A DNA stretch of 64,000 nt from an uncultured Anaerolineaceae bacterium. Lineage in GTDB: Bacteria; Chloroflexota; Anaerolineae; Anaerolineales; UBA4823. The notes below the pieces were generated by a model. The model saw only the letters and a program-made list of their open reading frames with translations, made no database searches and was not told where the DNA came from. Shown here in pieces: positions 2-33,043 of the stretch. Each line of letters opens with the position of its first letter. The first letter of the stretch is position 1. The DNA is taken from positions 128,684 to 192,683 of the forward strand of contig CAYGZL010000032.1 in the NCBI GenBank assembly GCA_964354345.1, read 5' to 3'. Position numbers and translations under genes: made by a program.

Positions 2-2680
2 GGCATGGTGCAATTTAAGGATGTCTTCCTGGGCACTGATACACGACCGTATTCACGGGCAGTAAACTCGCAGAAGTGTATGCGCGTGGCTGGCAAGCAT
101 AACGACCTGGAGGATGTCGGTCGGGATGACACACACCACACCTTTTTTGAGATGCTGGGAAACTGGTCCTTTGGCGATTACTATAAAAAGGAAGCCATTA
201 CCTGGGCCTGGGAACTACTCACTGAGGTATGGGGGCTACCCAAAGACCGCTTGTACGCGACCTGCTTTGAAGATGAAAAAGGCAAAATCGAACGAGACGA
301 CGAAGCCGCAATTAATTGGCGCCAGCAACCAGGTTTCAATCCAAACCATGTGCTGTTTTTTGGGCGAAAGGACAATTTCTGGGAAATGGCAGAGACCGGT
401 CCGTGTGGACCCTGCTCAGAAATCCACATTGATCGTGGGATCGAGTTTTGTAACCAACAAGATATCTCCGGGCATGTGTGCGGCGTCAACGGGGATTGCA
501 CTCGCTTCTTAGAACTGTGGAATCTGGTCTTTATCCAATATAATCGCCTGAGCCCAACCACTCTGGAACCACTGGCTGCCAAGCATGTGGACACTGGGAT
601 GGGCTTCGAGCGGATCGTGTCTGTGCTCCAGAATGTCGATTCTAACTATAAAACCGATGTCCTGGCACCCCTTATGGATATTGTTCAGCAATTAACCGGT
701 CATAGTGACATCGAACGACAGGAAAACCCGACCCCATATCGAGTGATTGCAGATCATGCGCGCGCCGCGGCGTTCTTGATCGCCGATGGCGTCGTTCCAG
801 GCAATGTCGGGCGTAACTATGTGTGCCGTATGATTATTCGTCGCGCGGCGCGTTTTGGTATGAAGATAGGCTTGAATCAACCTTTCCTGGCACAGGTTGC
901 CCAAAAGGGGATCGAAAATTATGGGAGTTTTTATCCAGAGTTAGCACGCAACCGCTCGGCGATCCTGACCAACCTGACCCGTGAAGAGGAACGCTTCCAG
1001 CGCACTGTCGAGAGTGGCCTTGCCAAGCTAGAGAACTTATTAGAAAAGCTGACCGCCAGTCGTGAACGCGATAGAACAATGCAGGAGGATGGTTCTGTTG
1101 TTTTATTTCTGCCTGGCGAGCAGGCTTTTGAGTTGTACGCGACTTACGGCCTCCCCCTGGAAATCACGCGCGATATCGCCCGTGAGCATAACCTCGATGT
1201 AGATGAAACTGGCTTTCGCCAGGCGATGGATCGCCATCGGCTGGCCTCCAGCGCGGGTGAAGCTTTTGGCTCTTTAGGAGGCAACGACGTTGATATTTAC
1301 CGGCAATTGCTGCAAGAGCAACAGGCGCTTGGGTTATTAGGTGCGGAGGGTGTCGATTTTCATCTATACGACCGAGTTGAGCTGCAACATGGATTGGAGC
1401 TGAGTGTGAAAGGACAGGTATTGGCCTTTGTGCGTGGTGGGGCTTCATCTCATGGTCAATTCGTTAACCAGGTTCAGACTGGTGAAAAGGTGGAAGTCTT
1501 GCTGGCTGAGACTTGCTTCTATGTGGAATCTGGCGGTCAGGTCTCGGATACGGGTACCATTCGGGCAGCCGATAGAAGCTGGGAAATTACTGTGACCGGC
1601 ATGCGTAAACCTGCTGCCGGAATCATCGTACATATCGGGGAGGTTTATCGTGGGCAACCAGCTGTTGGCGACTTATGTGTCGCCCAGGTGGATGTCGCAC
1701 GCCGGCAAGAGATCATGCGCAACCATACGGGCACACACCTGCTACATGCCGAGCTGCGCGCAGTTCTGGGTGAACATGCCCGGCAGGCAGGTTCACTGGT
1801 CGCCCCCGACCACTTGCGTTTCGACTTCACTCATCCGCAAGCGGTCGCCCCCGAGCAGTTAGAACGCATCCAGGCTGGCGTTAACCGGGCAATCCTGAGT
1901 AATTATCCTTTGCAAATTCAAGTCAAGCCACTCCACCAGGCAATGAGCGAAGGCGCTATGGCGCTTTTCGGCGAGAAATATGGCGATACAGTGCGCACGA
2001 TTAGCATCGGCGGTGAGCATCCCTTCTCTTACGAACTTTGCGGTGGTACACATGTCCCAGAAACTGGTGATATCGGCATATTACTGATCACGAGTGAGGG
2101 TAGCGCCGCGGCGGGCATCCGGCGTATCGAAGCCGTTACCGGGCGTGGCGCCTACGAACTCGTCCAGAGCCGATTCCAGGCATTGAAACGATCCGCCGAT
2201 TTGCTGGCAGCTCCGCCCGAGGAACTCCCTGCCCGAACAGAAATTATTCTGCAGGAGCTTAGCGAAGCACGCAAGCAGATTGCCACTCTACGCCGCGAGC
2301 TGGCTACCTATGAATTTAATCGTTCCCTGGATACTGTTCCGCTTATTGCAGGAGTGCCTGTGTTGACTGGCATACTTCCCAATGCTGACGCCGACACCTT
2401 GCGCCTGATGACTGACCGCTTCCGTCAGCATTTCCCGAGCGGGGTGGCGGTGTTGGGGAGTGTTGGCAGCGACGGGAAACCGATTTTGATCGCCGTTGTG
2501 ACTGAAGACCTGGTCAAACGCGGCCTGCACGCTGGAGAACTGGTGAAGTTCGCCGCTCAACCCTTGGGTGGAGGCGGGGGTGGACGACCGACTTTAGCCC
2601 AGGCTGGCGGTAAAGACGCCCGCCAGTTGGAAGCAGCGCTTAACAGTGTGTCAAGTTGGGTCGAAAACAAATTAAAATAA
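2..2680 (+). CDS. alaS: alanine--tRNA ligase, 5' end outside the window
   Basis: The ORF is open to the window edge. Motifs FEMLGNWSFGDYYK, editing-domain HTGTHLLH and CGGTHV, and the C-terminal GGGGGGRPxxAQAGG tract are typical of AlaRS. About 40 N-terminal residues are missing. Confidence 0.95.
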   Translation, partial: GMVQFKDVFLGTDTRPYSRAVNSQKCMRVAGKHNDLEDVGRDDTHHTFFEMLGNWSFGDYYKKEAITWAWELLTEVWGLPKDRLYATCFEDEKGKIERDDEAAINWRQQPGFNPNHVLFFGRKDNFWEMAETGPCGPCSEIHIDRGIEFCNQQDISGHVCGVNGDCTRFLELWNLVFIQYNRLSPTTLEPLAAKHVDTGMGFERIVSVLQNVDSNYKTDVLAPLMDIVQQLTGHSDIERQENPTPYRVIADHARAAAFLIADGVVPGNVGRNYVCRMIIRRAARFGMKIGLNQPFLAQVAQKGIENYGSFYPELARNRSAILTNLTREEERFQRTVESGLAKLENLLEKLTASRERDRTMQEDGSVVLFLPGEQAFELYATYGLPLEITRDIAREHNLDVDETGFRQAMDRHRLASSAGEAFGSLGGNDVDIYRQLLQEQQALGLLGAEGVDFHLYDRVELQHGLELSVKGQVLAFVRGGASSHGQFVNQVQTGEKVEVLLAETCFYVESGGQVSDTGTIRAADRSWEITVTGMRKPAAGIIVHIGEVYRGQPAVGDLCVAQVDVARRQEIMRNHTGTHLLHAELRAVLGEHARQAGSLVAPDHLRFDFTHPQAVAPEQLERIQAGVNRAILSNYPLQIQVKPLHQAMSEGAMALFGEKYGDTVRTISIGGEHPFSYELCGGTHVPETGDIGILLITSEGSAAAGIRRIEAVTGRGAYELVQSRFQALKRSADLLAAPPEELPARTEIILQELSEARKQIATLRRELATYEFNRSLDTVPLIAGVPVLTGILPNADADTLRLMTDRFRQHFPSGVAVLGSVGSDGKPILIAVVTEDLVKRGLHAGELVKFAAQPLGGGGGGRPTLAQAGGKDARQLEAALNSVSSWVENKLK

Positions 2681-2684
2681 AATT

Positions 2685-4892
2685 GTGGGAAGTCTGAGAT
2701 CTTTCGCCAGGGTCAGGATGAAAATCGCTTCACTCAAGATCAGTTTCTTGCCGAAAATCGCCGGTAAATATTCGCTGCAACCCGTAATGCTCCTGCTCGT
2801 ATGTCTGCTTGCATTCGGTTTACAGATTCCTTGGCTGGGTTATTATTGGGATGATTGGCCTGGCGCCTGGTTTTTACACCGTTTGGGTCCCGCAGGTTTC
2901 ACCCAAGTCTTTTCGGTTGACCGACCGGCCTTAGGCTGGCTATTCATGCTGACGACTGCGTTGATCGGAAAATCTACCCTGGGGTGGCAGCTCCTGGGTG
3001 TTTTGGCGCGCTGGTTGAGCTGCCTGGCTTTATGGAGATTGCTTCGGGCAGTCTGGCCAGAACGAATTACTCAGGCAACCTGGGTAACCTTGCTCTTCGC
3101 GGTGTATCCTGGTTTTAAACAGCAACACATTGCCATGACTTATAGCCATGATTGGTTAATCATGGCCGGATTTTTTCTATCACTGACGCTACAAATTTGG
3201 GCGGTGCGCAAGTTGTTGCGTGGGTCTGGTTGGTCGCGGAACAGAAGCAGTTGGTTTTTGTTCATCATCTCCTGGCTTCTTTCAGCTTATGCGATGTTCG
3301 CCGATGAATATTACTTCGGCCTGGAGCTGCTCCGACCAATCCTGCTTTGGCTGGTCTTCTCAGAACAAGGCGACTCGCTTCGCCAACGCTTGAAACGCAC
3401 ACTTCTAAATGAACTCCCCTACGCCATCAGTGTCGCTCTTTTTTTGTTCTGGCGTTTGTGGATCCACATCAGTCCACGTGGTCAGGTACAGGTCTTTGAA
3501 CGCCTGGTGCAAAATCCACTGGGTGGCTTTGTGACACTCTTGACAACTGTATTAACTGACACCTTTCGGTCTAGTTTTAGCGCCTGGAGCGAAATATTTA
3601 ATTTCCCGAAGATGTTGAGCCTGGGTATCATCCCTTCGGTCTTGTATGGGATTACGACAATCATTGGTGTCGTACTTTGCCTGCTGTATTTGAAATACAC
3701 CACTCGCAGTGATACTGCTTTGGCTGCACGAAGCTGGAGCCTGAGTGCAATCATCATCGGTCTGCTGGCGCTATTTGCAGGAGGCATTCCCTTCTGGGTC
3801 ACTTATCAGCCAATTGGGTTAAGTTTTCCCTGGGACCGTTTTACATTGCCGATGATCTTCGGAACCAGCCTGCTCCTGACCGGCCTATTACAACTATTAA
3901 TCCCCAAAACAGGGTTGAGGATCCTGTTCTTAAGCATTATGCTTGGACTGGCCACCGGGTTGCATGTGACCAATGGCAACCTGTATCGGAGGGAGTGGGC
4001 TGCCCAAAAAACCATGTTTTGGCAAATCACCTGGCGCGCTCCCGGGATACAGCCAGGTACAGTGCTGCTGACAACCGAGCTGCCCTTCACTTATTTTAGC
4101 GACAACTCCTTGACCGCGCCTCTGAACTGGATATACGAGCCGCAAACAAAAAATCCTCAGAATATCCAGAGAACGAGTTCGATCGATCGCCTGAGTCTAA
4201 GAATGGATTACCTGTTTTATGTGGTTGAATCGCGCCTGGGTTTCCGCTTGCCCAGTTTAGAAAAAGACTTGCCCATTGAACAACCTTACCGTACACTCAC
4301 ATTTTATGGATCTACATCTCAGGCGCTGGTTGTGTATGTAAATCCCCCGGCTTGTCTGAGAATCATTGATCCCGTCGTGGATGCACGTCTGCCGCAGAAA
4401 CCCAATTATCTGGCAGAAATGCTGCCGCTATCGAACCTGAACACGATTTTACCTGATGCGGATCCACCTGCCCAACCACCAGCTGCGATCTTTGGTAGTG
4501 AGCCAGAACCCGACTGGTGTTATTATTTTGAGAAAGCCGACCTGGCTCGACAACTTGGCGACTGGTCGCAAGTAGTCAACCTGGGAGAACAAGCATTCAA
4601 CCTAAACCAACGATTGTATGAGGTGAACGCGCCTGAATTGACTCCTTACATCGAAGGATATGCACATCTGGGACAATGGCAGGAGGCCCAACAATTGACT
4701 CAGCAAGCCTATCAATTATCAACCCGGATGCAACGCATGTTGTGCGCCACCTGGGGCAGGATTGCCCAAAGCACCTCACCGGATGGGGCTCAACAAGCTT
4801 CACTGGCTGAAATCAGAACCAGCCTGAAATGCACCGAGCTAAGCGGCCAAGATAGGATGACTACCTCGCTACTCTCAGGACAGGTCCCTTGA
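2685..4892 (+). CDS. large polytopic membrane protein, GT-C-like glycosyltransferase candidate (paralog 1 of 3)
   Basis: 735-aa ORF starting at GTG 2685 (alternative ATG 2718), 4 nt after the alaS stop. The N-terminal ~480 aa are rich in hydrophobic helices. An acidic GYYWDDWPG motif follows the first helix. YPGFKQQ, DRFTLP and FWQITWRAPG are shared with the next two ORFs. The C-terminal ~200 aa are soluble and carry WCYYFEKADLARQ. Confidence 0.6.
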   Translation: MGSLRSFARVRMKIASLKISFLPKIAGKYSLQPVMLLLVCLLAFGLQIPWLGYYWDDWPGAWFLHRLGPAGFTQVFSVDRPALGWLFMLTTALIGKSTLGWQLLGVLARWLSCLALWRLLRAVWPERITQATWVTLLFAVYPGFKQQHIAMTYSHDWLIMAGFFLSLTLQIWAVRKLLRGSGWSRNRSSWFLFIISWLLSAYAMFADEYYFGLELLRPILLWLVFSEQGDSLRQRLKRTLLNELPYAISVALFLFWRLWIHISPRGQVQVFERLVQNPLGGFVTLLTTVLTDTFRSSFSAWSEIFNFPKMLSLGIIPSVLYGITTIIGVVLCLLYLKYTTRSDTALAARSWSLSAIIIGLLALFAGGIPFWVTYQPIGLSFPWDRFTLPMIFGTSLLLTGLLQLLIPKTGLRILFLSIMLGLATGLHVTNGNLYRREWAAQKTMFWQITWRAPGIQPGTVLLTTELPFTYFSDNSLTAPLNWIYEPQTKNPQNIQRTSSIDRLSLRMDYLFYVVESRLGFRLPSLEKDLPIEQPYRTLTFYGSTSQALVVYVNPPACLRIIDPVVDARLPQKPNYLAEMLPLSNLNTILPDADPPAQPPAAIFGSEPEPDWCYYFEKADLARQLGDWSQVVNLGEQAFNLNQRLYEVNAPELTPYIEGYAHLGQWQEAQQLTQQAYQLSTRMQRMLCATWGRIAQSTSPDGAQQASLAEIRTSLKCTELSGQDRMTTSLLSGQVP

Positions 4893-4896
4893 GTCT

Positions 4897-7044
4897 ATGC
4901 TCGCGTTAAAGAAACTCCATTTTGGTGTATGGTCGGTTCCAGGTGCACTTTTATTGCTCTGCATCGGAGCCTTCGGCTGGTTAATCCCCTGGTTGGGGTT
5001 TTATCAAGACGACTGGGTAGTCATCTGGTTTGCACGGACCTTCGGCTCACAGGTATTTATTGATTTTTTTGCTAAAGAGCGCCCTTTCCTGGCAGGCATC
5101 TACATGGTCAGCACATGGCTGATCGGCGATTCTGCCATCGGTTGGCAGATCTTCGGTCTCCTGGGCAGATGGGTGGCTGCTCTGGCTGCCTGGTGGACGC
5201 TACGTTCCCTCTGGCCCAAAAAACCGTTACAAGTATTGGGAGTCGTATTCCTTTTCACGATCTACCCCGGTTTTAAACAGCAATACGTGTCTGTGCTTTA
5301 CAGCCAGGATTTCCTGATCCTGGCAGCCATGATCGCCTCTTTAGGTCTGACCATCCATGCCGTTCGCAGCGCAAGGCAGGGGAAGATTTGGCGGGCAGCC
5401 GGACTGACTGTGTTGGCATTAATCCTGACAGCGTTCGCTGATTTTTCGTCAGAATATTTCTTCGGCATGGAGCTGTTCCGCCCCCTCTTTATCTGGCTCG
5501 TCGTTGGTGAACAACACACCCTAATCCGGCAACGACTGCTGCGTGCGTTGAAGTACTGGTTACCTTACCTGGCACTAACCGGCATCTTCTTGGTATGGCG
5601 GTTGTTCATCTTCCAGTATGTCACTTATCAACCTCAGCTTGCCATGAATATCAGCTCCACTCCATGGGTGACTATTCAACGGTTAGCTCAAACGATTATC
5701 GAAGACTCCTACGAAACGGTTGCGTTAGCCTGGTTTCAAACCCTGGACATCGCCAGGATGGGGGAATTTAGTTTCGCGACCATGCTACTGCGCTGGTTAG
5801 TGGTCTGTGGGAGCGCAGGTCTGGTCGTTTTTTACCTGATACACCTGCAAAAAAGCATCTCTTTGCGCCTCACTCAAGACAAGCCTGGTGATCCGAACAA
5901 TCTCCCAGCCAAAACAGATATACAAAACAACGCCGGTGAAAACAAAGAGATCCTTAATGATTCTCAGAATACCGCATGGAGTAAACAAGCGATCCTGATC
6001 GGAGGGCTTTCTTTGCTGATTTCAGGATGGCCATTCTGGTTCACCAACCTGAGTATTGGGATTGAAATCCCCTACGACCGGTTTACTCTTCCCTATATGT
6101 TGGGTGTCAGCATACTTATCATTGGGATCCTGGAATGGCTCATCAGAACGCCATTCCAACGGATCTTAATCATCGGACTTCTCGTCGGATTGACCATACC
6201 TACTCACCTCAAGATCGCCAATTCCTTCCGGCAGATCCATAATCAGCAAGCGTCTTTATTCTGGCAACTTGCTTGGCGAGCGCCTGGGTTAAAGCAAGGC
6301 ACCCTGTTGCTAATGAACTCCTTTCCATTTCCTTACACCGGCGCTATGTCGTTAGGTGCGATCACGAATTGGATCTATGCGGATCTTCCACACTACCCCA
6401 CCATGGATTATGATTTCATCTTTATCCAGGATAAACTTGGGAATATCTTACCCGCCCTAGAAAAAGGCTTACCGATCGTACGCCCTTTCCGCTCAGTAAC
6501 TTATACTGGCTCGACTTCTGAAGCTCTGGTCATGCACCTTCCAGAGAATGGTTGTTTACGAATCCTCGATCCCCAACGAGATCTGAACATGCCAGCACTC
6601 CCCTTGTTGACTTCCCAGGCAATTCCCATTTCCAACCTGGAGCAGATTACAGCCTCTGGAACAGAAGCTGCTCAGCGCGTTCGTCAGCTTTTTGGTTCTG
6701 AACCCACGCATGGCTGGTGCTACTACTACGAAGTGGCAGAGCTGGCGCGCCAACAACGAGACTGGAAGCAAGTCGCTTCACTAGCTGATCAAGCGCTAAA
6801 CCTGAAGGTAAAATATTATGAAATCAATGCCACCGAATTTGCCCCTTTTATAGAGGGGTATGCCATGACCGGTAAGTGGACCGAGGCACGCCGCATCACT
6901 CTGGAGGCCTACCGTCTGTCTGCTAAGGTGCGGCCTCTCCTATGCACAGTATGGGACGAGATTGCACAATCGGCTCCCGCGGATATGGCGGGTCAGGATG
7001 TGATTAAGGCCATGAAGGAAAAACTTGCATGCTCGAAAAATTGA
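4897..7044 (+). CDS. large polytopic membrane protein, GT-C-like glycosyltransferase candidate (paralog 2 of 3)
   Basis: 715-aa ORF starting 4 nt after paralog 1. Motifs GFYQDDWVV, YPGFKQQ, DRFTLP, FWQLAWRAPG and WCYYYEVAELARQ are collinear with the neighbouring ORFs. It has a unique hydrophilic loop (QDKPGDPNNLPAKTDIQNNAGENKE). Confidence 0.6.
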   Translation: MLALKKLHFGVWSVPGALLLLCIGAFGWLIPWLGFYQDDWVVIWFARTFGSQVFIDFFAKERPFLAGIYMVSTWLIGDSAIGWQIFGLLGRWVAALAAWWTLRSLWPKKPLQVLGVVFLFTIYPGFKQQYVSVLYSQDFLILAAMIASLGLTIHAVRSARQGKIWRAAGLTVLALILTAFADFSSEYFFGMELFRPLFIWLVVGEQHTLIRQRLLRALKYWLPYLALTGIFLVWRLFIFQYVTYQPQLAMNISSTPWVTIQRLAQTIIEDSYETVALAWFQTLDIARMGEFSFATMLLRWLVVCGSAGLVVFYLIHLQKSISLRLTQDKPGDPNNLPAKTDIQNNAGENKEILNDSQNTAWSKQAILIGGLSLLISGWPFWFTNLSIGIEIPYDRFTLPYMLGVSILIIGILEWLIRTPFQRILIIGLLVGLTIPTHLKIANSFRQIHNQQASLFWQLAWRAPGLKQGTLLLMNSFPFPYTGAMSLGAITNWIYADLPHYPTMDYDFIFIQDKLGNILPALEKGLPIVRPFRSVTYTGSTSEALVMHLPENGCLRILDPQRDLNMPALPLLTSQAIPISNLEQITASGTEAAQRVRQLFGSEPTHGWCYYYEVAELARQQRDWKQVASLADQALNLKVKYYEINATEFAPFIEGYAMTGKWTEARRITLEAYRLSAKVRPLLCTVWDEIAQSAPADMAGQDVIKAMKEKLACSKN

Positions 7045-9122
7045 AATTTCGTTCGTGGACATTTCCACTTACCTTACTCTTGCTATCCATCTTGTGTTTC
7101 GGTTTACTTATCCCCTGGTTAGGATTTTACCAGGATGACTGGTACTTAATTTGGCTGTCGCATTTTTTCGGCGCAAATATTTTCTTCCCTTTTTTCGAAA
7201 ACCAACGCCCAATTCTCGCGTTGGTATACATTTTTACAACGAAGTTGGTTGGAACCTCCGCCGTGGGCTGGCAAATCTTTGGCTTACTCACCCGCTGGCT
7301 AGCCGCGCTGTCAGTCTGGTGGGCATTGAAACTGGCCTGGCCCAATCGTCCAAAACAAGTGGCCTGGATTACCGTGTTATTCCTCGTCTACCCTGGTTTT
7401 CAAGAGCACTTTGTCGCGGTTGTCTACAGCCAGAATTACCTCCTGATTACAGCCTCTTTGATCGCTTTGGGTTTGTCTTTATGGGTTGTGCGTAATCAAA
7501 CCAGGTTGACCATCCCTTTAACCATACTGGGAGTGTCTCTATCGCTATTGAGCGTATTTTCGTCCGAGTATTTCTTCGGTTTAGAATTTTTTCGCCCGTT
7601 GCTATTATGGGTGGTAGTCGGAGAGAAAATCAGTAGTCTCTGGCAACGCTTATCCAAAACATTGCTCTATTGGGCGCCTTACCTGGCAGCCTTGATCTTC
7701 TTCCTCGTCTGGCGTATTTTTATTTTTAAGTTTCCGACTTACCAGCCAAAGCTGGCCCAACAATTCGTCAGCGGTCCCTCGAATACTATCCTGACCATGG
7801 CGCAAACCGTGATCCAGGACTTCTTCGATGTCAGCCTGTTTGCCTGGACACAAACCCTGAATTTTGTCCGGACCGTCGAGCCTACCCTGCTTCTCGTGGT
7901 AATTAAATGGGTCATCCTCCTGGTAGGCGCAGCACTCACAATTTTCTACTTATCTAAATTTGTTGGAAAAGACGAAGAACCTCTCGAAGCGTCAGCTTCA
8001 ATAAAACCATCGCCTAGCTGGGCAATCCAGGCAATTATGATTGGGGTATTTTCCGTAATTATCACCGGGTGGCCGTTCTGGTTTGCGGGGTTGGAGATTG
8101 AGTTAGATATTTCACAGGAGCGTTTCACTCTGGCTTTCATGCTGGCTGTCAGTATCATGCTCGTTGGCCTGATCGAATTGTTCATTAAAACTGATCGCCA
8201 AAAAATTGTCATCATTGGTGTGATGGCTGGCCTCGCAATGGGCTGGCAATTAAAAGTGGCAGAGACCTTTCGGGAAGCTCATGCTGGTCAAGAAACATTC
8301 TTCCAGCAGCTGGTATGGCGCGCCCCTGGTTTGAAAAGCGGTACATTGCTTTTAACGAATCCACTGCCGATTAATTACAGTGGTGCAAATTCGCTAGCTG
8401 CTCCACTGAATTGGATTTACGCTCAAAATTACCAATATCCCAACATGGAATACGAGCTATTTTACATCCCGGATAAGCTAGGAAACGAACTTCCAGCTTT
8501 ACAGAATGGCCTGCCGATCACGAAACGATACGGTGTGATCACCTACCATGGCTCGACTTCCCAATCCCTGGTCGTTTATTTCGAACCGCCCGGCTGTGTC
8601 CTGGTGCTGGATCCGGCGGTCTATGGTGAAACTCCCATCAATGGATTGGATCAGCCTTCAATTTCGATTCCACGTCTGCCCGACTCAATTAACACCGCAG
8701 TGCCGATTTCACATGTTGGTCAAATTATCCCCTCCGCAGACATGCCCATCCACAACTTCCAGGAAATATTTGGCCAATCTACAACCTCAAATTGGTGTTA
8801 TTATTTCGAAAAAGCAGACCTGGCCCGGCAGTTTAGCGATTGGCCAACAGTCGTAGCGTTAGGCGACGAAGCAGCCCGCCAAAGTTTACGCCCGGTCGCC
8901 AAACAAGAGATTGAATTTTTACCTTTCATCGAGGGGTATGCCCACCAGGGAAACTGGAAACAGGCAGCGCGCCTGACGCGATTGACAGCCGGCTCTGTAC
9001 CCGCCATGGTACCAATCCTATGCAGTACCTGGACGCGAATCCAGCAAAACACCTCACCCGGCATTGAGCGAGATACGTATATTTCCAATTTCTGGTCAGA
9101 TTATGGATGTGGAGAGCCGTAA
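7029..9122 (+). CDS. large polytopic membrane protein, GT-C-like glycosyltransferase candidate (paralog 3 of 3)
   Basis: 697-aa ORF overlapping paralog 2 by 16 nt. Motifs GFYQDDWYL, YPGFQEH, ERFTLA, FQQLVWRAPG and WCYYFEKADLARQ. Confidence 0.6.
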   Translation: MLEKLKFRSWTFPLTLLLLSILCFGLLIPWLGFYQDDWYLIWLSHFFGANIFFPFFENQRPILALVYIFTTKLVGTSAVGWQIFGLLTRWLAALSVWWALKLAWPNRPKQVAWITVLFLVYPGFQEHFVAVVYSQNYLLITASLIALGLSLWVVRNQTRLTIPLTILGVSLSLLSVFSSEYFFGLEFFRPLLLWVVVGEKISSLWQRLSKTLLYWAPYLAALIFFLVWRIFIFKFPTYQPKLAQQFVSGPSNTILTMAQTVIQDFFDVSLFAWTQTLNFVRTVEPTLLLVVIKWVILLVGAALTIFYLSKFVGKDEEPLEASASIKPSPSWAIQAIMIGVFSVIITGWPFWFAGLEIELDISQERFTLAFMLAVSIMLVGLIELFIKTDRQKIVIIGVMAGLAMGWQLKVAETFREAHAGQETFFQQLVWRAPGLKSGTLLLTNPLPINYSGANSLAAPLNWIYAQNYQYPNMEYELFYIPDKLGNELPALQNGLPITKRYGVITYHGSTSQSLVVYFEPPGCVLVLDPAVYGETPINGLDQPSISIPRLPDSINTAVPISHVGQIIPSADMPIHNFQEIFGQSTTSNWCYYFEKADLARQFSDWPTVVALGDEAARQSLRPVAKQEIEFLPFIEGYAHQGNWKQAARLTRLTAGSVPAMVPILCSTWTRIQQNTSPGIERDTYISNFWSDYGCGEP

Positions 9123-9125
9123 ACG

Positions 9126-10100
9126 ATGAATGTAGTCACACTTTCCCCCGGTTTATCAGTAGTTGTCCCGGTTTATAACAGTGCAGAGACTCTGGCTGAG
9201 CTAACTACGCGACTGGCCAAAGTGTTGCCAGGACTGGTCACACAATATGAGTTAATCCTGGTCAATGATGGCAGCCAGGATAAGAGCTGGGAAATAATTC
9301 TGGAATTAACCAGGATCTACCCCTGGATCCGGGCGATTAACTTGATGCGGAACTACGGCCAGCATAACGCCCTCTTGTGCGGGATTCGAAGCGCGCGCTT
9401 CGATCTCATCGTTACGATGGATGACGATCTACAACATCCCCCAGAAGAAATTTATAAACTACTCGCTAAACTGGCGGAGGGCTATGATGTGGTGTATGGG
9501 ATTCCTCAAAGAATGCCCCATTCCTGGTGGCGTAATTTATTCTCGGTGATTATCAAGCGCGTCCTGGCTTATGTAATGGGGGTTAAAACTGTGCGCGACT
9601 TTGCAGCCTTCCGCGCCTTGCGCACCCGGCTTCGCCGCGCCTTCGAAAATTACCAAAACCCCAATGTCTTAATTGATGTTTTACTTTCATGGGGCACGCA
9701 TCGTTTCACCACAACGGTCGTTAACGAGAATCCTCGGCCGGCTGGGCGATCGAACTACAGCCTTTCACGGCTGGTCCAATACACTATGGTAGTCATTACC
9801 GGCTTTAGCACCTTCCCGTTGCGCCTGGCGAGTGTGGTCGGATTCATCTTTACTCTGTTCGGCATTGGGGTATTTCTATACGTTGTCGCCATCTATTTTC
9901 TGGTGGGCAGTATGCCAGGATTTCCATTCCTGGCATCACTGGTTTCGTTATTTAGCGGAACCCAGCTTTTCGCGCTGGGTATCTTCGGCGAATATTTAGC
10001 GCGCATCTTTGATCGCAGTATGGATCGCCCTCCGTATGTGGTTGAAGAGGATCTGAAACTATCTCCAGAGGTACAAACCTCCGCGGACGCTGAATCCTGA
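9126..10100 (+). CDS. GT2 polyprenyl-phosphate glycosyltransferase (ArnC/GtrB-like)
   Basis: SVVVPVYN, NDGSQD, NYGQHNAL, DDDLQHPPEE and EGYDVV, plus two C-terminal TM helices and GEYLARIF. It is collinear with E. coli ArnC as I recall it. Confidence 0.8.
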   Translation: MNVVTLSPGLSVVVPVYNSAETLAELTTRLAKVLPGLVTQYELILVNDGSQDKSWEIILELTRIYPWIRAINLMRNYGQHNALLCGIRSARFDLIVTMDDDLQHPPEEIYKLLAKLAEGYDVVYGIPQRMPHSWWRNLFSVIIKRVLAYVMGVKTVRDFAAFRALRTRLRRAFENYQNPNVLIDVLLSWGTHRFTTTVVNENPRPAGRSNYSLSRLVQYTMVVITGFSTFPLRLASVVGFIFTLFGIGVFLYVVAIYFLVGSMPGFPFLASLVSLFSGTQLFALGIFGEYLARIFDRSMDRPPYVVEEDLKLSPEVQTSADAES

Positions 10101-10105
10101 CCCTT

Positions 10106-10807
10106 ATGCAGTGTGTCATTCTTCAGCCCTCTTACATCCCCTGGCGAGGATATTTCGACCAGATTTACCAGGCTGATGTCTTTGTATTTTACGATGATGT
10201 GCAATACGATAAACACGGCTGGCGGAATCGCAACCGGATCAAAACCAACCAGGGCCTCCAATGGCTGACCATCCCTGTCCAATCCAGCGGGAATGTCACC
10301 GAACACATTCCCATCAACCAGATCCAAATTAACTGGCAGCAGCCATGGAACCGCAAACATTGGGCTTCTATCCAACAGGCCTATAGGAAAGCCCCCTATT
10401 TTCATACGTACGCGCCTGTACTTGAGGTTTATTACCAACGTCATGCCGAGCTGCTTGCAGATTTCACGATTGATCTGACCATGGCTCTAGCGCGTGAACT
10501 TGGGATCACGAAAACACGCTTCTTACGCTCTTCAAGTCTGGCTGTCCAAGGGGTGAGGACTGATCGGCTAATCGCTATCTTAAAGTTGGTCGGCGCGGAT
10601 CATTACTTGAGCGGACCTTCCGCTCGAGACTATCTTGAAGAAAGGAAATTCCAGGCCAGTGGGATCAGTTTATCTTATATGGTCTACGATTATCCACAAT
10701 ATCCCCAACTTTACCCCCCCTATGATCCTCAGGTATCTATCCTGGATTTATTGTTCATGACCGGGCCGGATGCGCTACAATATATTATCAACCAACCGAC
10801 AGTCTGA
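10106..10807 (+). CDS. WbqC-family protein (polysaccharide-cluster protein of unknown biochemical role)
   Basis: The N-terminus ILQPSYIPWRGYFDQI..FYDDVQYDKHGWRNRNRIKT..WLTIPV matches my recollection of the WbqC (PF08889) signature. Confidence 0.65.
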   Translation: MQCVILQPSYIPWRGYFDQIYQADVFVFYDDVQYDKHGWRNRNRIKTNQGLQWLTIPVQSSGNVTEHIPINQIQINWQQPWNRKHWASIQQAYRKAPYFHTYAPVLEVYYQRHAELLADFTIDLTMALARELGITKTRFLRSSSLAVQGVRTDRLIAILKLVGADHYLSGPSARDYLEERKFQASGISLSYMVYDYPQYPQLYPPYDPQVSILDLLFMTGPDALQYIINQPTV

Positions 10808-10828
10808 TCCGATACAGATGAAATAAAC

Positions 10829-11968
10829 ATGGATACATATACCATCGGTTTCAATAAACCCACCCTGGTCGGCACAGAGTTTGAGTATATCCGCCAGGCT
10901 TTTGAAAATGAGCATGTCTCTGGAGATGGCATCTTCACGAAAAAATGCCATGCCCTGCTTGAAAACCAATTGGGCATACCCAAGGTGCTTTTAACGACTT
11001 CATGCACCCATGCCCTGGAACTGGCCATTTTGCTGCTAGATCCCCAACCTGGTGATGAGTTCATCCTGCCGTCTTTCACCTTTGTCTCGACTGCGAATGC
11101 CTTCGTATTGCGTGGTGCGCGGCCAGTCTTTATTGATATCCGGCCAGACACCCTTAACCTGGATGAGAATCAGCTCGAACCTCTAATTACATCACGCACG
11201 CGCGCCATCCTACCCGTGCATTATGCAGGAGTCGGCTGCGAAATGGATGCTATTCTCGAAATCGCAAACGGTTATCAAATCCCTATCGTAGAGGATAATG
11301 CGCATGGCTTGTTTGGGAAATATAAAGGGCGTTACTTAGGTACTTTCGGATGCATGGCAACCCAAAGTTTTCACGAAACCAAGAACTTTACCTGCGGTGA
11401 AGGTGGGGCGCTGCTTATCAACAATCCTGCCTATTCAGAACGTGCAGAAATCATCCGAGAGAAAGGTACTAATCGCAGCCGTTTCTTCCGTGGTCAAGTG
11501 GACAAGTACACCTGGGTCGACGTTGGGTCGAGCTACCTGCCTTCCGAAATTCTGGCAGCGTTCTTATATGCGCAGCTTGAAGCCCGCCAAGCCATTCAGA
11601 CCACGCGTAAATATATTTGGGATTATTACCAGCAGAACTTGGCGGATTGGGCTTCCCGGCATGGGATCCGGCTGCCAGTGGTGCCGGATTACTGCGAGCA
11701 GCCCTACCACATGTTTTACATGCTGCTCCCCTCACTTGAGAAACGCCAGGCGTTGATCGCGCACCTGAAGTCGAAAGGAATTCAAGGCGTTTTTCATTAT
11801 TTACCCCTACACCTCTCAGACATGGGTTTAAAATTCGGAGGGAAGGTCAGCGACTGTACGGTAACTCAAGATGTCAGCGATCGGCTGTTACGTTTACCCT
11901 TCCACAACCAATTGACTCAGTCAAACCAGGATCGCGTGATTGAAGCCATCCATGAGTTCATAATTTAA
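10829..11968 (+). CDS. DegT/DnrJ/EryC1-family PLP aminotransferase, WecE-like (NDP-4-keto-6-deoxyhexose 4-aminotransferase)
   Basis: SFHETKNFTCGEGGALLIN, REKGTNRSRFFRGQVDKYTWVDVGSSYLPSE and MFYMLLP closely parallel E. coli WecE. Confidence 0.85.
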   Translation: MDTYTIGFNKPTLVGTEFEYIRQAFENEHVSGDGIFTKKCHALLENQLGIPKVLLTTSCTHALELAILLLDPQPGDEFILPSFTFVSTANAFVLRGARPVFIDIRPDTLNLDENQLEPLITSRTRAILPVHYAGVGCEMDAILEIANGYQIPIVEDNAHGLFGKYKGRYLGTFGCMATQSFHETKNFTCGEGGALLINNPAYSERAEIIREKGTNRSRFFRGQVDKYTWVDVGSSYLPSEILAAFLYAQLEARQAIQTTRKYIWDYYQQNLADWASRHGIRLPVVPDYCEQPYHMFYMLLPSLEKRQALIAHLKSKGIQGVFHYLPLHLSDMGLKFGGKVSDCTVTQDVSDRLLRLPFHNQLTQSNQDRVIEAIHEFII

Positions 11969-11974
11969 AGTCTA

Positions 11975-12421
11975 ATGAACCTAAACCACCAACCGCGCCG
12001 CATTCTAGCTGTTGATCCGGGGGAAAAACGCCTGGGGATCGCTTTAAGTGATCCAACGGGATTGATTGCCAATCCACTAACAATCATCGAACATATTTCC
12101 CGACCCCTCGACGCGGCGCGAATCGCTCACCTGGCACTGGAAAACGAAGCGATTTGCATCATTGTTGGAGAGGCATTAAATGAGGATGGTCAGCCAACCC
12201 CACAAAGCCGGCGCGCTGAACGATTAGCAGTGGCAATCCGAGAGCAATGCGAGATCCCAGTCGTGCTTTGGGACGAAAGCGGTAGTACCCGGGCAGCCCG
12301 CAACGCACGCCTGGCCTTAGGCGTCCGTCGCAAGAGGCGCAAGGGACACCTGGATGAACTCGCTGCAACCTACATTCTACAAACCTACCTGGACGCTCAT
12401 CCCTATTCTAGCGATATGTGA
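11975..12421 (+). CDS. ruvX: YqgF/RuvX putative pre-16S rRNA nuclease / Holliday-junction-resolvase-like protein
   Basis: 148 aa. ILAVDPGEKRLGIALSD at the N-terminus and WDESGSTRAAR are typical of YqgF. Confidence 0.85.
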   Translation: MNLNHQPRRILAVDPGEKRLGIALSDPTGLIANPLTIIEHISRPLDAARIAHLALENEAICIIVGEALNEDGQPTPQSRRAERLAVAIREQCEIPVVLWDESGSTRAARNARLALGVRRKRRKGHLDELAATYILQTYLDAHPYSSDM

Positions 12422-12433
12422 GTTTGCTTCAAA

Positions 12434-13573
12434 ATGCGTCGCCTGCTCTCACTCCTCGTTTCACTATCCCCAATCTTATTGATTATCCTGTGCCTGGCCG
12501 CGATTGTCCTGGGATGGTTCGCCTGGCGTCTACCTGAGCAAGCGGAAACCACCTTCGGCCCGTCTGCCCCCAGCTTGGGCTTAATTCAACGGGTATACCT
12601 GTCTGCACAACTCACGTTGTTGTCAGATAACCTGACTAAAGCCAATGAACCCAACGGAACAGATCGCTCATTTTCGATTCAATTGGGCGAGTCTACTCTC
12701 TCCATCACCAATCGCCTCGAACAGGAAGGTTTTATTTCGAGCTCCCAGGCGCTGCGGACCTATCTGGTTTATTCTGGTCTGGATACTACCTTACAAACGG
12801 GCGACTACCATCTCAGCCCGGCCATGACTCCATTGGAAATAACCCAAAAATTTCAGAACGCCAGTTCTACCGATGTAAAATTCCGCATTTTAGCAGGTTG
12901 GCGCATCGAAGAAATCGCCGCTGCTTTACCCACCTCGGGGTTGGATATTACACCCGAGGCGTTTCAACAAGCAGCTTACCATCCTTATTTGCCACCTGAT
13001 CTAACCATTAATCTCCCAGATGGCGCGTCGCTCGAGGGTTTCTTATATCCTGATCTGTATCAGTTCCCTCGATCGATCGGGGTTAATGATTTTCTCAAGG
13101 GTCTGGTGGTCCGTTTCTCAGAGCAGAACAATGAGGAACTATCCCAAGGCTTTGAAAAGCAAGGATTAAGCGTTTTCGAGGCAGTCACCCTGGCCTCCAT
13201 TATCCAACGCGAAGCGATTGTTGAAGAAGAAATGCCGATGATTGCCTCTGTCTTTTATAACCGCCTGGCAACTGGAATGAAGCTTGACTCTGATCCAACC
13301 GTCCAATATGCACTGGGTTATATACCAGAGAGAAAGGGATGGTGGAAAAATCCTCTCAGCCTGGAAGATCTCCAGGTAAATTCACCCTATAATACTTATC
13401 TGAATAAAGGCCTGCCTCCTGGACCGATTTCTAATCCGAGTCTGAACGCTATCATGGCAGTCGCTTTTCCTGCTCAGACTCCCTATTTTTACTTCCGGGC
13501 AGCCTGTGATGGCTCGGGATTGCATTTATTTTCTAAGACATTTCAGGAACATTTAAATAAAGGCTGCCCGTAA
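12434..13573 (+). CDS. mltG: endolytic murein transglycosylase MltG (YceG family)
   Basis: N-terminal TM helix. ASIIQREA, VFYNRL..MKLDSDPTVQYALG and SPYNTYLNKGLPPGPISNPS are YceG-like motifs. Confidence 0.9.
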   Translation: MRRLLSLLVSLSPILLIILCLAAIVLGWFAWRLPEQAETTFGPSAPSLGLIQRVYLSAQLTLLSDNLTKANEPNGTDRSFSIQLGESTLSITNRLEQEGFISSSQALRTYLVYSGLDTTLQTGDYHLSPAMTPLEITQKFQNASSTDVKFRILAGWRIEEIAAALPTSGLDITPEAFQQAAYHPYLPPDLTINLPDGASLEGFLYPDLYQFPRSIGVNDFLKGLVVRFSEQNNEELSQGFEKQGLSVFEAVTLASIIQREAIVEEEMPMIASVFYNRLATGMKLDSDPTVQYALGYIPERKGWWKNPLSLEDLQVNSPYNTYLNKGLPPGPISNPSLNAIMAVAFPAQTPYFYFRAACDGSGLHLFSKTFQEHLNKGCP

Positions 13574-13614: not shown

Positions 13615-14340
13615 TCAAGGCTGGTTATACATCCCATGTAAATCGTTCAGGCGTATTTTCAAGAGTTCGCGTACCATGTTGAAAGTATCTTGAACTGGTT
13701 TTACTTTACTCTGGCCACGGTAATACCAATCGATAGGTACCTCCTGGATCGTATACCCCCATTTCCGCGCGATGAATAATATTTCAACATCAAAACCCCA
13801 ACCCGGTATGGTTTGCGCCCGGAACAACTGATGGGCTACATCCGCCCGAAAACACTTAAATCCACATTGGGTATCTTGCAACCCGGCGACAGCCAGCCAA
13901 CGAACGAGAGTATTAAATACCCGACCCATCACATGCCTGTATTCCGGTTCACCGATCCGCCGAGCACCGGGGGTTTCACGCGAGGCAATCAAGATCGGGG
14001 TTGTATGAGCGAACAGCGCCGAAAACTTGGTAAATTCGGCAATAGGCATTGAGAGATCCGAATCGCAGAGGAAAACCCATTCTCCTCGGCTGGCCAGCAC
14101 GCCATTCCGGCAAGCATGACCTTTCCCCCCATGACTCACCCGGAGCAAATTTAAGTCGGGGTGTTTTTGTATTGCTTCCTGAACGATCTGCGCGGTATGA
14201 TCCACGCTCCCATCATCAACGACAGTGACCTCGAATGAATAATTCTGATGGTTATAGAATTCCATCGTGTCTTGCAGCGTTATTGCCAGCCGGGCTGCCT
14301 CGTTATATGCCGGGATTACCACCGAGAGGAATGGTTTCAT
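13615..14340 (-). CDS. GT2 glycosyltransferase, soluble, polyprenol-phosphate hexosyltransferase-like
   Basis: 241 aa. LSVVIPAYNE, VDDGSVDHT, CDSDLS (DxD) and QCGFKCF motifs. Confidence 0.75.
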   Translation of the reverse strand: MKPFLSVVIPAYNEAARLAITLQDTMEFYNHQNYSFEVTVVDDGSVDHTAQIVQEAIQKHPDLNLLRVSHGGKGHACRNGVLASRGEWVFLCDSDLSMPIAEFTKFSALFAHTTPILIASRETPGARRIGEPEYRHVMGRVFNTLVRWLAVAGLQDTQCGFKCFRADVAHQLFRAQTIPGWGFDVEILFIARKWGYTIQEVPIDWYYRGQSKVKPVQDTFNMVRELLKIRLNDLHGMYNQP

Positions 14341-32949: not shown

Positions 32950-32964
32950 ACGAGTATAATTGAG

Positions 32965-32993
32965 GCTGAGCAGACGGATTTTGTCTGCTCAGC
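32965..32993 (+). terminator. strong hairpin after thrS (terminator-like, no clear U tract)
   Basis: GCTGAGCAGAC-GGATTTT-GTCTGCTCAGC forms an 11-bp perfect stem. Confidence 0.45.
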
Positions 32994-33013
32994 TACTGCA
33001 TTCGGTTAAGCGG

Positions 33014-33043
33014 TTGACGATTTAGCGCATCCTGTGGTATCAT
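33014..33043 (+). promoter_or_regulatory. sigma70-type promoter with extended -10 for infC-rpmI-rplT
   Basis: TTGACG (33014-33019), 18 nt spacer, TGgTATCAT (33035-33043). Confidence 0.55.

Follow-up and report, generated by a model that had tools for sequence, protein, structure and literature searches.

Three consecutive paralogous genes in the window, by which we mean the whole 64,000 nt stretch of contig CAYGZL010000032.1 (uncultured Anaerolineaceae bacterium) analysed here, are proposed to form, along with the three genes immediately downstream, an Arn/Gtr-type extracytoplasmic glycosylation cassette in which the paralogs are GT-C transferases (Table 1). We give this reading a probability of about 0.7. 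That the family to which the paralogs belong consists of GT-C enzymes whose lipid-linked donor is supplied by the neighbouring GT2 is very probable and, if the proposed activity is true, these proteins represent a candidate new glycosyltransferase family. The family comprises 3,444 clusters at 50% identity and is confined, as far as sampled, to Chloroflexota, all 79 of the retrieved genomic loci falling within this phylum and mostly within the Anaerolineae; it is also unmodelled by curated databases. Pfam, NCBIfam and PDB sequence searches with the family returned no match, in keeping with the view of the initial annotation that it was not a recognised named family, and profile searches did not assign it an alternative, non-glycosyltransferase function. 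Pfam GT-C models had no matches across 52 members even at E ≤ 10, PDB profile searches found nothing, and an hhalign comparison of the family with E. coli ArnT gave a probability of 0.2; hence none of these approaches found a sequence-level link to known GT-C families.

Table 1. Positions within the window of the cassette genes and of features of the paralogs they encode
Feature	Position (nt)	Strand	Remarks
Paralog 1	2685-4892	+	735 aa from GTG 2685; likelier start ATG 2718 gives 724 aa
DD codons, paralog 1	2850-2855	+	D56-D57 (735-aa numbering), just after TM1
C-terminal domain equivalent, paralog 1	~4038-4889	+	
Paralog 2	4897-7044	+	715 aa; the modelled copy
DD codons, paralog 2	5008-5013	+	D38-D39, start of first extracytoplasmic loop
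C-terminal domain, paralog 2	6280-7041	+	Residues 462-715; predicted extracytoplasmic, four invariant Cys
Paralog 3	7029-9122	+	697 aa; 16 nt overlap with the end of paralog 2
DD codons, paralog 3	7134-7139	+	D36-D37
C-terminal domain equivalent, paralog 3	~8322-9119	+	
GT2	9126-10100	+	324 aa, two C-terminal membrane helices; full-length homolog of ArnC/GtrB (Sll0501)/PgfS
WbqC-like protein	10106-10807	+	PF08889, E 1.8e-80
WecE-like PLP-dependent aminotransferase	10829-11968	+	Predicted substrate dTDP-4-keto-6-deoxyhexose

The coordinates and lengths originally reported for the three forward strand ORFs (735, 715 and 697 aa) were reproduced exactly, the true start of paralog 1 probably being at 2718 rather than 2685 on the basis of a separate gene call on the same DNA. 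Their description as collinear paralogs also stands: all three pairwise blastp alignments are collinear across approximately 700 residues and far beyond chance, with identities of 38.6% between paralogs 1 and 2 (E 1e-172), 37.1% between 1 and 3 (E 3e-161) and 43.2% between 2 and 3 (E 0).

The suggestion that these proteins are GT-C-like is supported by structural matches, conservation of the DD pair, charge topology and the adjacency of the GT2 gene, four lines of evidence that are independent of one another. The AlphaFold2 model of paralog 2 had a pLDDT of 93.2 and a pTM of 0.91, with values of 92.2 and 0.92, respectively, for the membrane domain alone. When the membrane part was compared with the PDB using Foldseek, every match with a probability of at least 0.9 was a GT-C enzyme, these matches having weak E-values (about 1e-3 to 1e-2) and TM-scores that were all below 0.5. 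Those with a probability of at least 0.95 were to STT3 (8agc and 6s7t; probability 1.0, query-normalised TM-scores of 0.39-0.43), ArnT (5ezm and 5f15; 0.95-0.99) and Pmt4 (9i5k; 0.97, with the best TM-scores among the matches, 0.45/0.43) only; EmbB scored 0.5.

Eleven membrane helices were assigned to residues 1-461 of paralog 2, followed by the C-terminal domain. K and R residues are dense (0.19-0.26 per residue) in the N-terminal tail and in four of the five loops placed in the cytoplasm, and sparse (0.00-0.06) in all of the loops placed outside; the fifth inside loop, the variable TM8-TM9 loop, has a density of only 0.09, and its placement follows from helix alternation alone. The pooled density was greater inside than outside in all 95 sequences. 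This charge bias indicates that the N-terminus is inside, and that both the DD pair and the C-terminal domain are outside, in agreement with the extracytoplasmic location first proposed for them. A different fate befell the proposal that divergence of a mid-protein loop, including a hydrophilic insert, is consistent with diversified substrate specificity: the insert falls in the cytoplasmic TM8-TM9 loop, and is hence a poor candidate for determining the choice of acceptor. Better candidates are the C-terminal domain and EL4, the outside TM7-TM8 loop (residues 239-292 of paralog 2), which is divergent (17-43% identity).

With the exception of the first cysteine motif, each of the shared motifs quoted in the initial annotation was recovered at equivalent positions of the three paralogs. 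Common to all three are G(Y/F)Y(W/Q)DDW, YPGF(K/Q)(Q/E)(Q/H), (D/E)RFTL(P/A) and F(W/Q)Q..WRAPG, as well as WCYY(F/Y)E.A(D/E)LARQ,.P(Y/F)IEGYA and LC..W. Residue conservation was counted over 95 family ORFs, with paralog 2 as the numbering reference. The DD pair is kept in all 94 homologs covering that position; R62, W83, P124, R395, R461 and P463 are present in all 95 ORFs, and E186 and R195 in 94. None of the three outcomes that the initial annotation had named as refuting its reading (a cytoplasmic DD motif, loss of the DD pair in homologs, or a profile assignment to another function) was observed. GT-C enzymes generally have a DD or DxD motif just after TM1, along with a conserved arginine in one of the outside loops belonging to the C-terminal helix cluster (PMC6801728), a pattern that the conserved DD and arginine residues of the family fit.

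The C-terminal domain had been described as a helical, TPR-like region of around 200 residues containing three conserved cysteines. It is in fact about 255 residues long and begins with a strand-rich half; only the second half is helical and TPR-like, and the TPR-like nature of this half is weakly supported, TPR_2 Pfam matches being present in nine of 52 members, all below the Pfam cut-off, and a TPR domain being matched by Foldseek with a probability of 0.91 in the paralog 2 model. The cysteines number four (C553, C608, C683 and C712 in paralog 2), owing to an additional residue near the C-terminus (KCTE, ACSK and GCGE in the three paralogs), and the domain has exactly four in 94 of the 95 family members. 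The first of the motifs, CLRI, holds for paralogs 1 and 2, whilst paralog 3 reads CVLV.

The genes downstream point to the nature of the donor. Full-length homology to ArnC, GtrB and PgfS (E 4.6e-51 against 9hwj) predicts that the GT2 is a polyprenyl-phosphate glycosyltransferase making a lipid-linked donor. The aminotransferase scores 569 bits against the NCBIfam WecE equivalog (cut-off 375), and matches WecE structures with an E-value of 1.7e-126, compared with 1.4e-49 for ArnB; the position of the WbqC-like protein in the cassette suggests a putative role in tailoring an amino sugar. Intergenic distances across the six genes range from -16 to 21 nt. Co-occurrence with ArnC-like GT2 genes, to which the initial annotation had drawn attention, is common: of 78 loci, 66 have a GT2 gene immediately after the one or more family genes and 12 lack it at this position, whilst a WecE-like aminotransferase is found within 9 kb in 53 (missing in 25) and WbqC in 35.

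This partnership bears on whether the family might instead comprise GT-C-fold oligosaccharyltransferases, resembling STT3, PglB or O-OTases, which would transfer a preassembled oligosaccharide from polyprenyl diphosphate rather than a single sugar from a monophosphate. The top Foldseek matches are STT3 subunits, and, as in STT3 and PglB (GT66), TM1 is followed by an acidic motif and the C-terminal domain is large and extracytoplasmic. However, the STT3 Pfam model matches none of 52 members, the WWDxG-like motif is missing from all three paralogs, and there are 11 helices, as in PMT and TMTC proteins, rather than the 13 of STT3. Furthermore, the usual partner is an ArnC/GtrB-type polyprenyl-monophosphate enzyme rather than an initiating phosphoglycosyltransferase or Wzx-type flippase; this suggests a monophosphate-linked single sugar and not the diphosphate-linked oligosaccharide used by STT3 and PglB, and we regard an oligosaccharyltransferase as improbable.

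The flanking genes raise a further alternative, namely a glycan polymerase or ligase (similar to Wzy, WaaL or SEDS proteins) acting on a wall or sheath polysaccharide, to which the neighbouring sugar genes would be loosely related. In its favour, the paralogs have many helices and carry a large outside domain, and the window cassette lies between alaS and ruvX-mltG, MltG being an enzyme that acts on peptidoglycan strands. Yet Leptolinea-type loci lack the linkage to alaS, ruvX and mltG but keep that to the GT2, WaaL, Wzy and SEDS structures are not among the probable Foldseek matches, and there is no Wzy_C or O-antigen ligase Pfam match, all of which make this explanation very unlikely.

The number of copies upstream of the single GT2 is one in 68 loci, two in six and three in four others and the window. 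The tandem triplication originally described is correct insofar as three paralogs are adjacent, but it was no recent event: the copies belong to distinct old clades that also contain copies from other genomes, paralog 1 being of the ortholog type found singly beside alaS in other Anaerolineae, and the clade of paralog 3 consisting of the copies that immediately precede the GT2 gene in genomes with several copies. The three copies are ancient. It might be argued that only one is functional, the others being redundant or decaying duplicates without a distinct role, since a single copy suffices in 68 of 79 loci and paralog 3 departs from the common motifs at ERFTLA, FQQL and CVLV. This is very unlikely, as all three ORFs are intact and full length and retain every family-invariant residue, the identities of 37-43% and the clades common to other genomes imply long retention under selection, and the 4 nt spacing of paralogs 1 and 2 and the 16 nt overlap of paralogs 2 and 3 suggest co-translation.

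Under the proposed Arn/Gtr-type scheme, the WecE-like aminotransferase would generate dTDP-4-amino-4,6-dideoxyhexose, which the WbqC-like protein would tailor, probably at the amino group. The GT2 would transfer the sugar to polyprenyl phosphate at the cytoplasmic face, and a putative flippase would carry the lipid-linked sugar across the membrane; in the outer leaflet, each GT-C paralog would then transfer it from polyprenyl phosphate to a surface acceptor. The invariant R195, R395 and R461 (paralog 2) may bind phosphate, with D38-D39, where the first outside loop begins, acting as a base or metal ligand, and the acceptor would probably be chosen through the divergent TM7-TM8 loop and the C-terminal domain, with its four cysteines and TPR-like half. 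A 4-amino-4,6-dideoxyhexose derivative as donor is plausible and doubtful in equal measure; known ArnC/GtrB-type enzymes are users of UDP-sugars, such that a dTDP-sugar donor would be unusual. The most likely arrangement is that the three paralogs share one donor and modify different acceptors or positions, as do the Gtr type-specific transferases, PgfM1/PgfM2 and EmbA/B/C, with the odds that it is the acceptor itself that differs being about even. Protein and wall polysaccharide are roughly equal candidates for the acceptor class, and lipid is less likely.

No flippase gene (of the GtrA, SMR or MATE type) was found within the operon, nor any small multi-helix ORF across the whole window, and MFS transporters are present in the Foldseek lists, but that the paralogs themselves transport or flip the lipid-linked sugar that the GT2 makes, or else serve as scaffolds, is the least likely explanation of all, as the MFS matches have probabilities below 0.4 and TM-scores of about 0.13 (compared with 0.95-1.0, and up to 0.45, for GT-C enzymes), the invariant polar residues are found within outside loops or at their margins, an arrangement also seen in GT-C active sites, and a conserved 255-residue outside domain with four invariant cysteines would be unexpected in a flippase.

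In the Arn pathway, the ArnB aminotransferase, ArnC (GT2) and ArnT (a GT-C enzyme of GT83) act to add an amino sugar to lipid A. Like the E. coli arn operon, the cassette combines in a single operon a sugar 4-aminotransferase, an ArnC-type GT2 and multi-helix GT-C proteins; the GT2 is an ArnC homolog over its full length, ArnT is among the high-probability Foldseek matches (0.95-0.99), and E. coli ArnT has an acidic pair (PDET) right after TM1. However, the sequences of the family resemble neither ArnT nor the Pfam models PMT_2 and PMT, the helices number 11 as against 13, and the family carries a large C-terminal domain that bears four cysteines and is TPR-like in one half. In place of an ArnB-like aminotransferase there is a WecE-like one (dTDP-6-deoxyhexose), equivalents of ArnA, ArnD, ArnE and ArnF are lacking, and the window has three transferases per donor synthase. 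To our knowledge, Anaerolineae do not make lipid A; the acceptor must therefore differ from that of Arn.

Three-component systems pair a polyprenyl-phosphate sugar synthase with at least one acceptor-specific GT-C enzyme (PMC11127046). Examples are GtrA/GtrB/Gtr*, CsbB/GtcA/YfhO, PgfS/PgfM1/PgfM2 and the pentofuranose systems with GT136, the last being a precedent for founding a new glycosyltransferase family on a GT-C fold that resembles no existing family in sequence. In such systems several GT-C enzymes can share one donor, as is proposed for the cassette, but the cassette differs in having no flippase gene and in that the sequences of the family show no relationship to those of their GT-C components. 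We know of no described donor in such systems that is a 4-amino-4,6-dideoxyhexose derivative.

A third comparison is with the protein O-mannosyltransferases TMTC1-4 (GT105) and the PMT clan (GT39 and TMEM260), of which Pmt4 gives the family's best TM-scores. The family differs from these in being bacterial and confined to one phylum, in having four invariant cysteines, a probable amino sugar donor in place of mannose, and no DUF1736, PMT or PMT_2 Pfam match; furthermore, its C-terminus has around three helical hairpins after a strand-rich subdomain, compared with around ten TPRs in TMTC proteins. Nevertheless, TMTC1-4 have a membrane domain of approximately 460 residues composed of 11 helices, an N-terminus in the cytoplasm, a first outside loop in which a DD pair is strictly conserved, a structured TM7-TM8 outside loop, a variable cytoplasmic TM8-TM9 loop and a luminal, non-cytoplasmic C-terminal domain of helical TPR repeats (PMC7801869), an architecture nearly identical to that of the family described here.

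The three consecutive ORFs at this locus probably encode GT-C glycosyltransferases that are fed by the product of the adjacent GT2 gene, a reading to which we assign a probability of roughly 0.8. The initial annotation described them as collinear paralogs, which is borne out by alignments along approximately 700 residues: identity is 38.6% between paralogs 1 and 2 (E = 1e-172), 37.1% between paralogs 1 and 3 (E = 3e-161) and 43.2% between paralogs 2 and 3 (E = 0). All the sequence motifs it quoted were found at equivalent positions in the three proteins. Its list of three conserved cysteines stands with two changes: the one quoted as CLRI is present as such in paralogs 1 and 2, but replaced by CVLV in paralog 3, and there is a fourth conserved cysteine near the C terminus. 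In a separate gene prediction for this DNA, paralog 1 is 724 aa long, which would put its start at the ATG at position 2718.

Features of the window and of related loci (a locus handle, where given, precedes the colon; all other coordinates are those of the window)
Feature	Coordinates	Strand	Remark
Paralog 1	2685-4892	+	735 aa, GTG start
Paralog 2	4897-7044	+	715 aa
Paralog 3	7029-9122	+	697 aa
GT2	9126-10100		324 aa; 3 nt downstream of paralog 3
WbqC-like protein	10106-10807
DegT-family aminotransferase	10829-11968
alaS-ruvX-mltG(yceG) cluster	5-13573		interrupted by the cassette
Further GT2 gene	13615-14340	-	converges on the operon
Further GT2 gene	14379-15407	-	converges on the operon
ORF-poor stretch	32950-34892		about 1.9 kb
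Three tandem GNAT-type ORFs, then HAD hydrolase	36600-39006		GNAT-type ORFs of about 190-200 aa
ORF resembling glutamate synthase	43424-43894	-	155 aa
PAP2-family membrane phosphatase	47067-47711	+	tandem repeat at 47135-47178
N_BRCA1_IG protein and adjoining glycosyltransferase	49671-51924	-	370-aa protein
Cassette-variant examples (methyltransferase, GNAT, ~505-aa protein)	L045:13708-14349; L001:4493-5122; L013:13005-13739; L002:13257-14771
DedA/VTT-domain membrane protein, Leptolinea tardivitalis	L045:9376-9924		directly upstream of the family gene

A homolog search gave 531 significant matches among the 8,000 candidates scored; among the matches listed, nearly all are around 680 aa long, none carries a precomputed Pfam domain and almost every family member is either labelled 'hypothetical protein' or has no name. 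With a profile built from 52 members, at least 3,444 clusters formed at 50% identity are matched at E <= 1e-3; at E <= 1e-30 the number is 1,717. At least 569 stretches of species-representative genomes encode a relative, and the best 79 of these loci all come from Chloroflexota, mostly Anaerolineae; among them are the cultured Leptolinea tardivitalis YMTK-2 and Leptolinea sp. HRD-7. No relatives were found in a scan of viral contigs, hence there is no sign of a seroconversion module carried by phage. Scans of the three paralogs with Pfam and NCBIfam returned nothing above any curated cut-off, sequence searches of the PDB with profiles of three and of 52 sequences found neither a GT-C match nor any other relative, and nothing relevant to this GT-C-like family in Anaerolineae or Chloroflexi was found in the literature. 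The family is real, large and unnamed, and restricted to one phylum as far as sampled. One metagenomic protein of 1,196 aa (P0001) scores 782 bits, above any homolog of single length; it could either join two family copies in one chain or result from a merged gene call.

Conservation was assessed over 95 family ORFs, taken from the 79 retrieved loci and the window, with residues numbered as in paralog 2. The aspartate pair D38-D39, ten residues beyond the end of TM1 in the AlphaFold2 model, is found in each of the 94 homologs that cover this position; R62, W83, P124, R395, R461 and P463 are present in all 95 ORFs, and E186 and R195 in 94 of them. R395 falls within the (D)RFTLP motif of the TM9-TM10 outside loop, and R461 within WRAPG. 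Topology was judged from the density of lysine and arginine in each loop, with the helices taken from the AlphaFold2 model. Values of 0.19-0.26 per residue were obtained for the N-terminal tail and loops TM2-3, TM4-5, TM6-7 and TM10-11, against 0.00-0.06 for loops TM1-2, TM3-4, TM5-6, TM7-8 and TM9-10; the variable TM8-TM9 loop, with a density of only 0.09, is assigned to the inside because the helices alternate. When pooled, the density is higher inside than outside in 95 of 95 sequences. The predicted arrangement is thus one of 11 helices with the N terminus inside; the C-terminal domain is outside, and the DD pair lies where the first outside loop begins. The charge bias agrees with the earlier placement of both the DD pair and the C-terminal domain on the extracytoplasmic side, and all the invariant polar residues lie within, or border, outside loops.

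Such a pattern is familiar from the GT-C superfamily (PMC6801728), whose members have a DD, DxD or DE motif not far beyond TM1, within the first extracytoplasmic loop, and additional conserved motifs in the outside loops that follow. The C-terminal helix cluster also contributes an outside loop with a conserved arginine or lysine, the proposed binder of the donor phosphate. The family shares the DD pair after TM1, the later-loop motifs and the arginine in the C-terminal cluster, and R395 and R461 may, by analogy, participate in binding the donor phosphate. The C-terminal domain has exactly four cysteines in 94 of the 95 ORFs, with C553, C608, C683 and C712 invariant. It had been described as TPR-like, which holds for only part of it: in the AlphaFold2 model it includes around three helical hairpins, and the last ~140 residues of paralog 2 match TPR domains in Foldseek (FKBP52, probability 0.91), but there is a strand-rich half as well. 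TPR_2 matches below the Pfam cut-off were found in nine of 52 members (best E = 6e-4) in a scan at E <= 10.

The AlphaFold2 model of paralog 2, built with the 52-sequence alignment, has a pLDDT of 93.2 and a pTM of 0.91 for the whole protein, and of 92.2 and 0.92 for residues 1-465 alone. When the membrane part was compared with the PDB using Foldseek, every match with a probability of at least 0.9 was a GT-C enzyme: STT3 (GT66; 8agc, 6s7t, 8age and others) with probabilities of 0.97-1.0 and query-normalised TM-scores of 0.37-0.43, ArnT (GT83; 5ezm, 5f15) with 0.95-0.99 and approximately 0.34, and Pmt4 (GT39; 9i5k) with 0.97 and TM-scores of 0.45/0.43. EmbB (GT53) followed at a probability of about 0.5 (TM-score ~0.3). 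The E values of the GT-C matches are only 1e-3 to 1e-2 and every TM-score is below 0.5, hence the family would be a distant GT-C member, not near any of those with a solved structure. Together with the DD and arginine motifs, these models uphold the GT-C reading of the initial annotation.

No sequence link to a known family within the superfamily was found. A Pfam scan of 52 aligned members at E <= 10 matched no GT-C model, whether for ArnT, PMT_2 and PMT (GT83 and GT39; PF13231, PF02366) or for STT3 and PglB (GT66; PF02516). Aligning the family profile to a single E. coli ArnT sequence with hhalign gave a probability of 0.2; a homolog search with the same protein returned only Escherichia and Citrobacter sequences at least 76% identical to it, useless for building a profile, and a phmmer search with ArnT turned up no PMT_2 relative among 763 ORFs of the window and the retrieved loci. 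The family has the structural and motif features of the GT-C superfamily but fails to match the sequence models of GT83/GT39, GT66 and GT105; it is a candidate for a new GT-C family, and its lipid-linked donor sugar may also be new.

Given the STT3 matches, the paralogs could be imagined to move a whole oligosaccharide as STT3 does; however, the partner gene, the lack of a WWDxG-like motif in any of the three paralogs and the helix count are all contrary to this. A role as polymerase or ligase would likewise be conceivable for a membrane protein of this type, but no such match was seen with either structures or Pfam. A transporter or flippase was rejected on the low Foldseek probabilities, which for MFS proteins were below 0.4 (TM-score ~0.13).

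The GT-C reading draws further on gene order. The cassette is flanked by alaS and ruvX-mltG, and its intergenic gaps range from -16 to 21 nt, hence the three paralogs and the downstream genes probably form one operon; promoter-like sites occurred at chance level in a promoter scan, and terminator-like sites were found within T-rich coding sequence. Over its full length the GT2 is homologous to ArnC (E 4.6e-51), GtrB/Sll0501 and PgfS, and is therefore predicted to be a polyprenyl-phosphate glycosyltransferase. The co-occurrence with an ArnC-like GT2 that had been proposed was observed in 66 of the 78 other loci, where the next gene after the family copy or copies is at least 45% identical to the GT2 gene of the window; this proximity lends indirect support to a polyprenyl-phosphate-linked sugar as the probable donor. 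The aminotransferase exceeds the NCBIfam equivalog cut-off for WecE, the dTDP-4-amino-4,6-dideoxygalactose transaminase (569 against 375 bits), and matches WecE structures at E 1.7e-126 and ArnB at 1.4e-49. For WbqC, neither a PDB relative nor, in the library searched, relevant literature on its function was found. An aminotransferase gene is within 9 kb in 53 of the 78 loci, and a WbqC gene in 35. The GT2 and the family gene are constant across loci, while the sugar-tailoring genes vary: 28 loci have a SAM methyltransferase gene between those for the aminotransferase and WbqC, and in 20 a GNAT acetyltransferase gene follows the GT2, neither being present in the window. The latter arrangement recalls the WecD/WecE pair.

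The alaS-ruvX-mltG cluster is otherwise widespread, and the same insertion site is used in about 26-32 of the 78 related loci; those of the Leptolinea type carry the cassette elsewhere. In 27 loci, though not in the window, a downstream gene encodes a conserved protein of around 505 aa, for which the match to Baseplate_J-like is weak. All the ORFs from alaS to mltG are accounted for and none encodes a flippase of the GtrA, SMR or MATE type, nor does the 64-kb window contain any small multi-helix ORF; a flippase gene may lie elsewhere in the genome. DedA proteins have been proposed to be polyprenyl phosphate recyclers or flippases, and the DedA/VTT-domain protein of Leptolinea tardivitalis could be the missing flippase or recycler. 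Of the two further GT2 proteins encoded beyond the operon, that of 241 aa has no predicted membrane helices. As it weakly resembles dolichyl-phosphate hexose transferase and polyprenyl-phosphate sugar synthases of the PpgS type over its full length, it is a candidate for a second lipid-sugar synthase.

Other features were observed elsewhere in the window. The ORF-poor stretch, in which no ORF exceeds 122 aa and nothing matches Rfam, lies in the sole 2-kb bin of the window's second half with a clearly positive GC skew (+0.088). Of the tandem GNAT-type ORFs, the second and the third each share 38% identity with the first; ORFs 1 and 3 were scanned, and both match Pfam Acetyltransf_3. The 155-aa ORF matches only positions 225-279 of the 369 in the conserved glutamate synthase region, and may be a gene fragment. 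Near its 5' end, the PAP2-family gene contains 2.6 copies of a perfect 17-bp tandem repeat, and the protein with an N_BRCA1_IG Ig-like domain adjoins a glycosyltransferase resembling MGDG synthase or GT28.

The number of family genes varies between loci, with one copy in 68 of the 79 retrieved, two in six and three in four; the window is a further three-copy locus. In a neighbour-joining tree, constructed without bootstrapping, paralog 1 clusters with single-copy alaS-linked genes and the middle copy of related locus L016, paralog 3 with the copies just upstream of the GT2 in loci L001, L003, L009, L016 and L029, and paralog 2 is sister to the paralog 3 clade, whilst the triplets of loci L061, L070 and L076 form their own separate clades. 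Hence the copies are old, and tandem expansion has happened more than once. The description of the locus as a tandem triplication is thus accurate as to arrangement; a recent event was rejected on the tree and on the 37-43% identity. Extra copies might be suspected of being redundant or decaying, but the three retain every invariant residue and belong to old clades. The paralogs diverge in the TM7-TM8 outside loop (17-43% identity) and in TM8, and have no alignable identity in the cytoplasmic TM8-TM9 loop, which holds hydrophilic inserts. These are the mid-protein inserts previously linked to substrate specificity; being cytoplasmic, they are unlikely to set that for the acceptor.

Homology, structure prediction and synteny together suggest an Arn/Gtr-type pathway operating outside the cytoplasm. 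The aminotransferase, probably along with WbqC, would produce a tailored dTDP-4-amino-4,6-dideoxyhexose; the GT2 would load this amino sugar onto polyprenyl phosphate, a flippase would export the lipid-linked sugar, and each GT-C paralog would pass it to its own acceptor. The odds that the sugar is a 4-amino-4,6-dideoxyhexose derivative appear about even, and a difference in acceptor between the paralogs is a similarly balanced proposition. The TPR-like half of the C-terminal domain hints at a protein acceptor, its strand-rich half and the wall-related neighbouring genes at a polysaccharide.

Anaerolineae are poorly studied filamentous bacteria, abundant in digesters, sediments and soils, with a cell envelope that is almost unstudied. 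The GT-C placement and the ArnC-like/WecE-like cassette offer a testable surface glycosylation pathway for Chloroflexota, and point to a candidate new CAZy family and to lipid-linked amino-sugar donors of a class that may be new. We know of no GT-C enzyme or ArnC/GtrB-type synthase for which a polyprenyl-phosphate 4-amino-4,6-dideoxyhexose donor has been described. A tentative proposal, for which the balance falls slightly short of even, is that these genes are the founding example of a GT-C family of CAZy rank, specific to Chloroflexota (Anaerolineae), that uses such a donor, made from a dTDP-sugar by the ArnC-like enzyme, and diversifies decoration through tandem copies. If so, expansions of one to three copies per donor synthase would diversify surface, sheath or glycoprotein decoration, and the one-, two- and three-copy loci would be a natural series for the evolution of GT-C acceptor specificity.

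It is well established that in three-component systems a single donor synthase can serve several acceptor-specific GT-C enzymes (PMC11127046). The cassette likewise has a polyprenyl-phosphate sugar synthase beside the GT-C genes; however, those systems encode a dedicated flippase, which is lacking at this locus. In architecture the proteins of this family come very near the TMTC O-mannosyltransferases (GT105). The latter have 11 helices, and their first outside loop carries a strictly conserved DD; the TM7-TM8 outside loop is structured, the cytoplasmic TM8-TM9 loop is variable, and a TPR domain lies on the luminal side (PMC7801869). The family differs in having no DUF1736 (PF08409) match and around three helical hairpins in its model, as opposed to about ten canonical TPR repeats, but is nearly identical in its 11 helices, internal N terminus and DD pair in the first outside loop, and likewise has a C-terminal helical-repeat domain on the non-cytoplasmic side. 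No concept is overturned: the cassette appears to follow the same working logic as the Arn, Gtr and TMTC systems.
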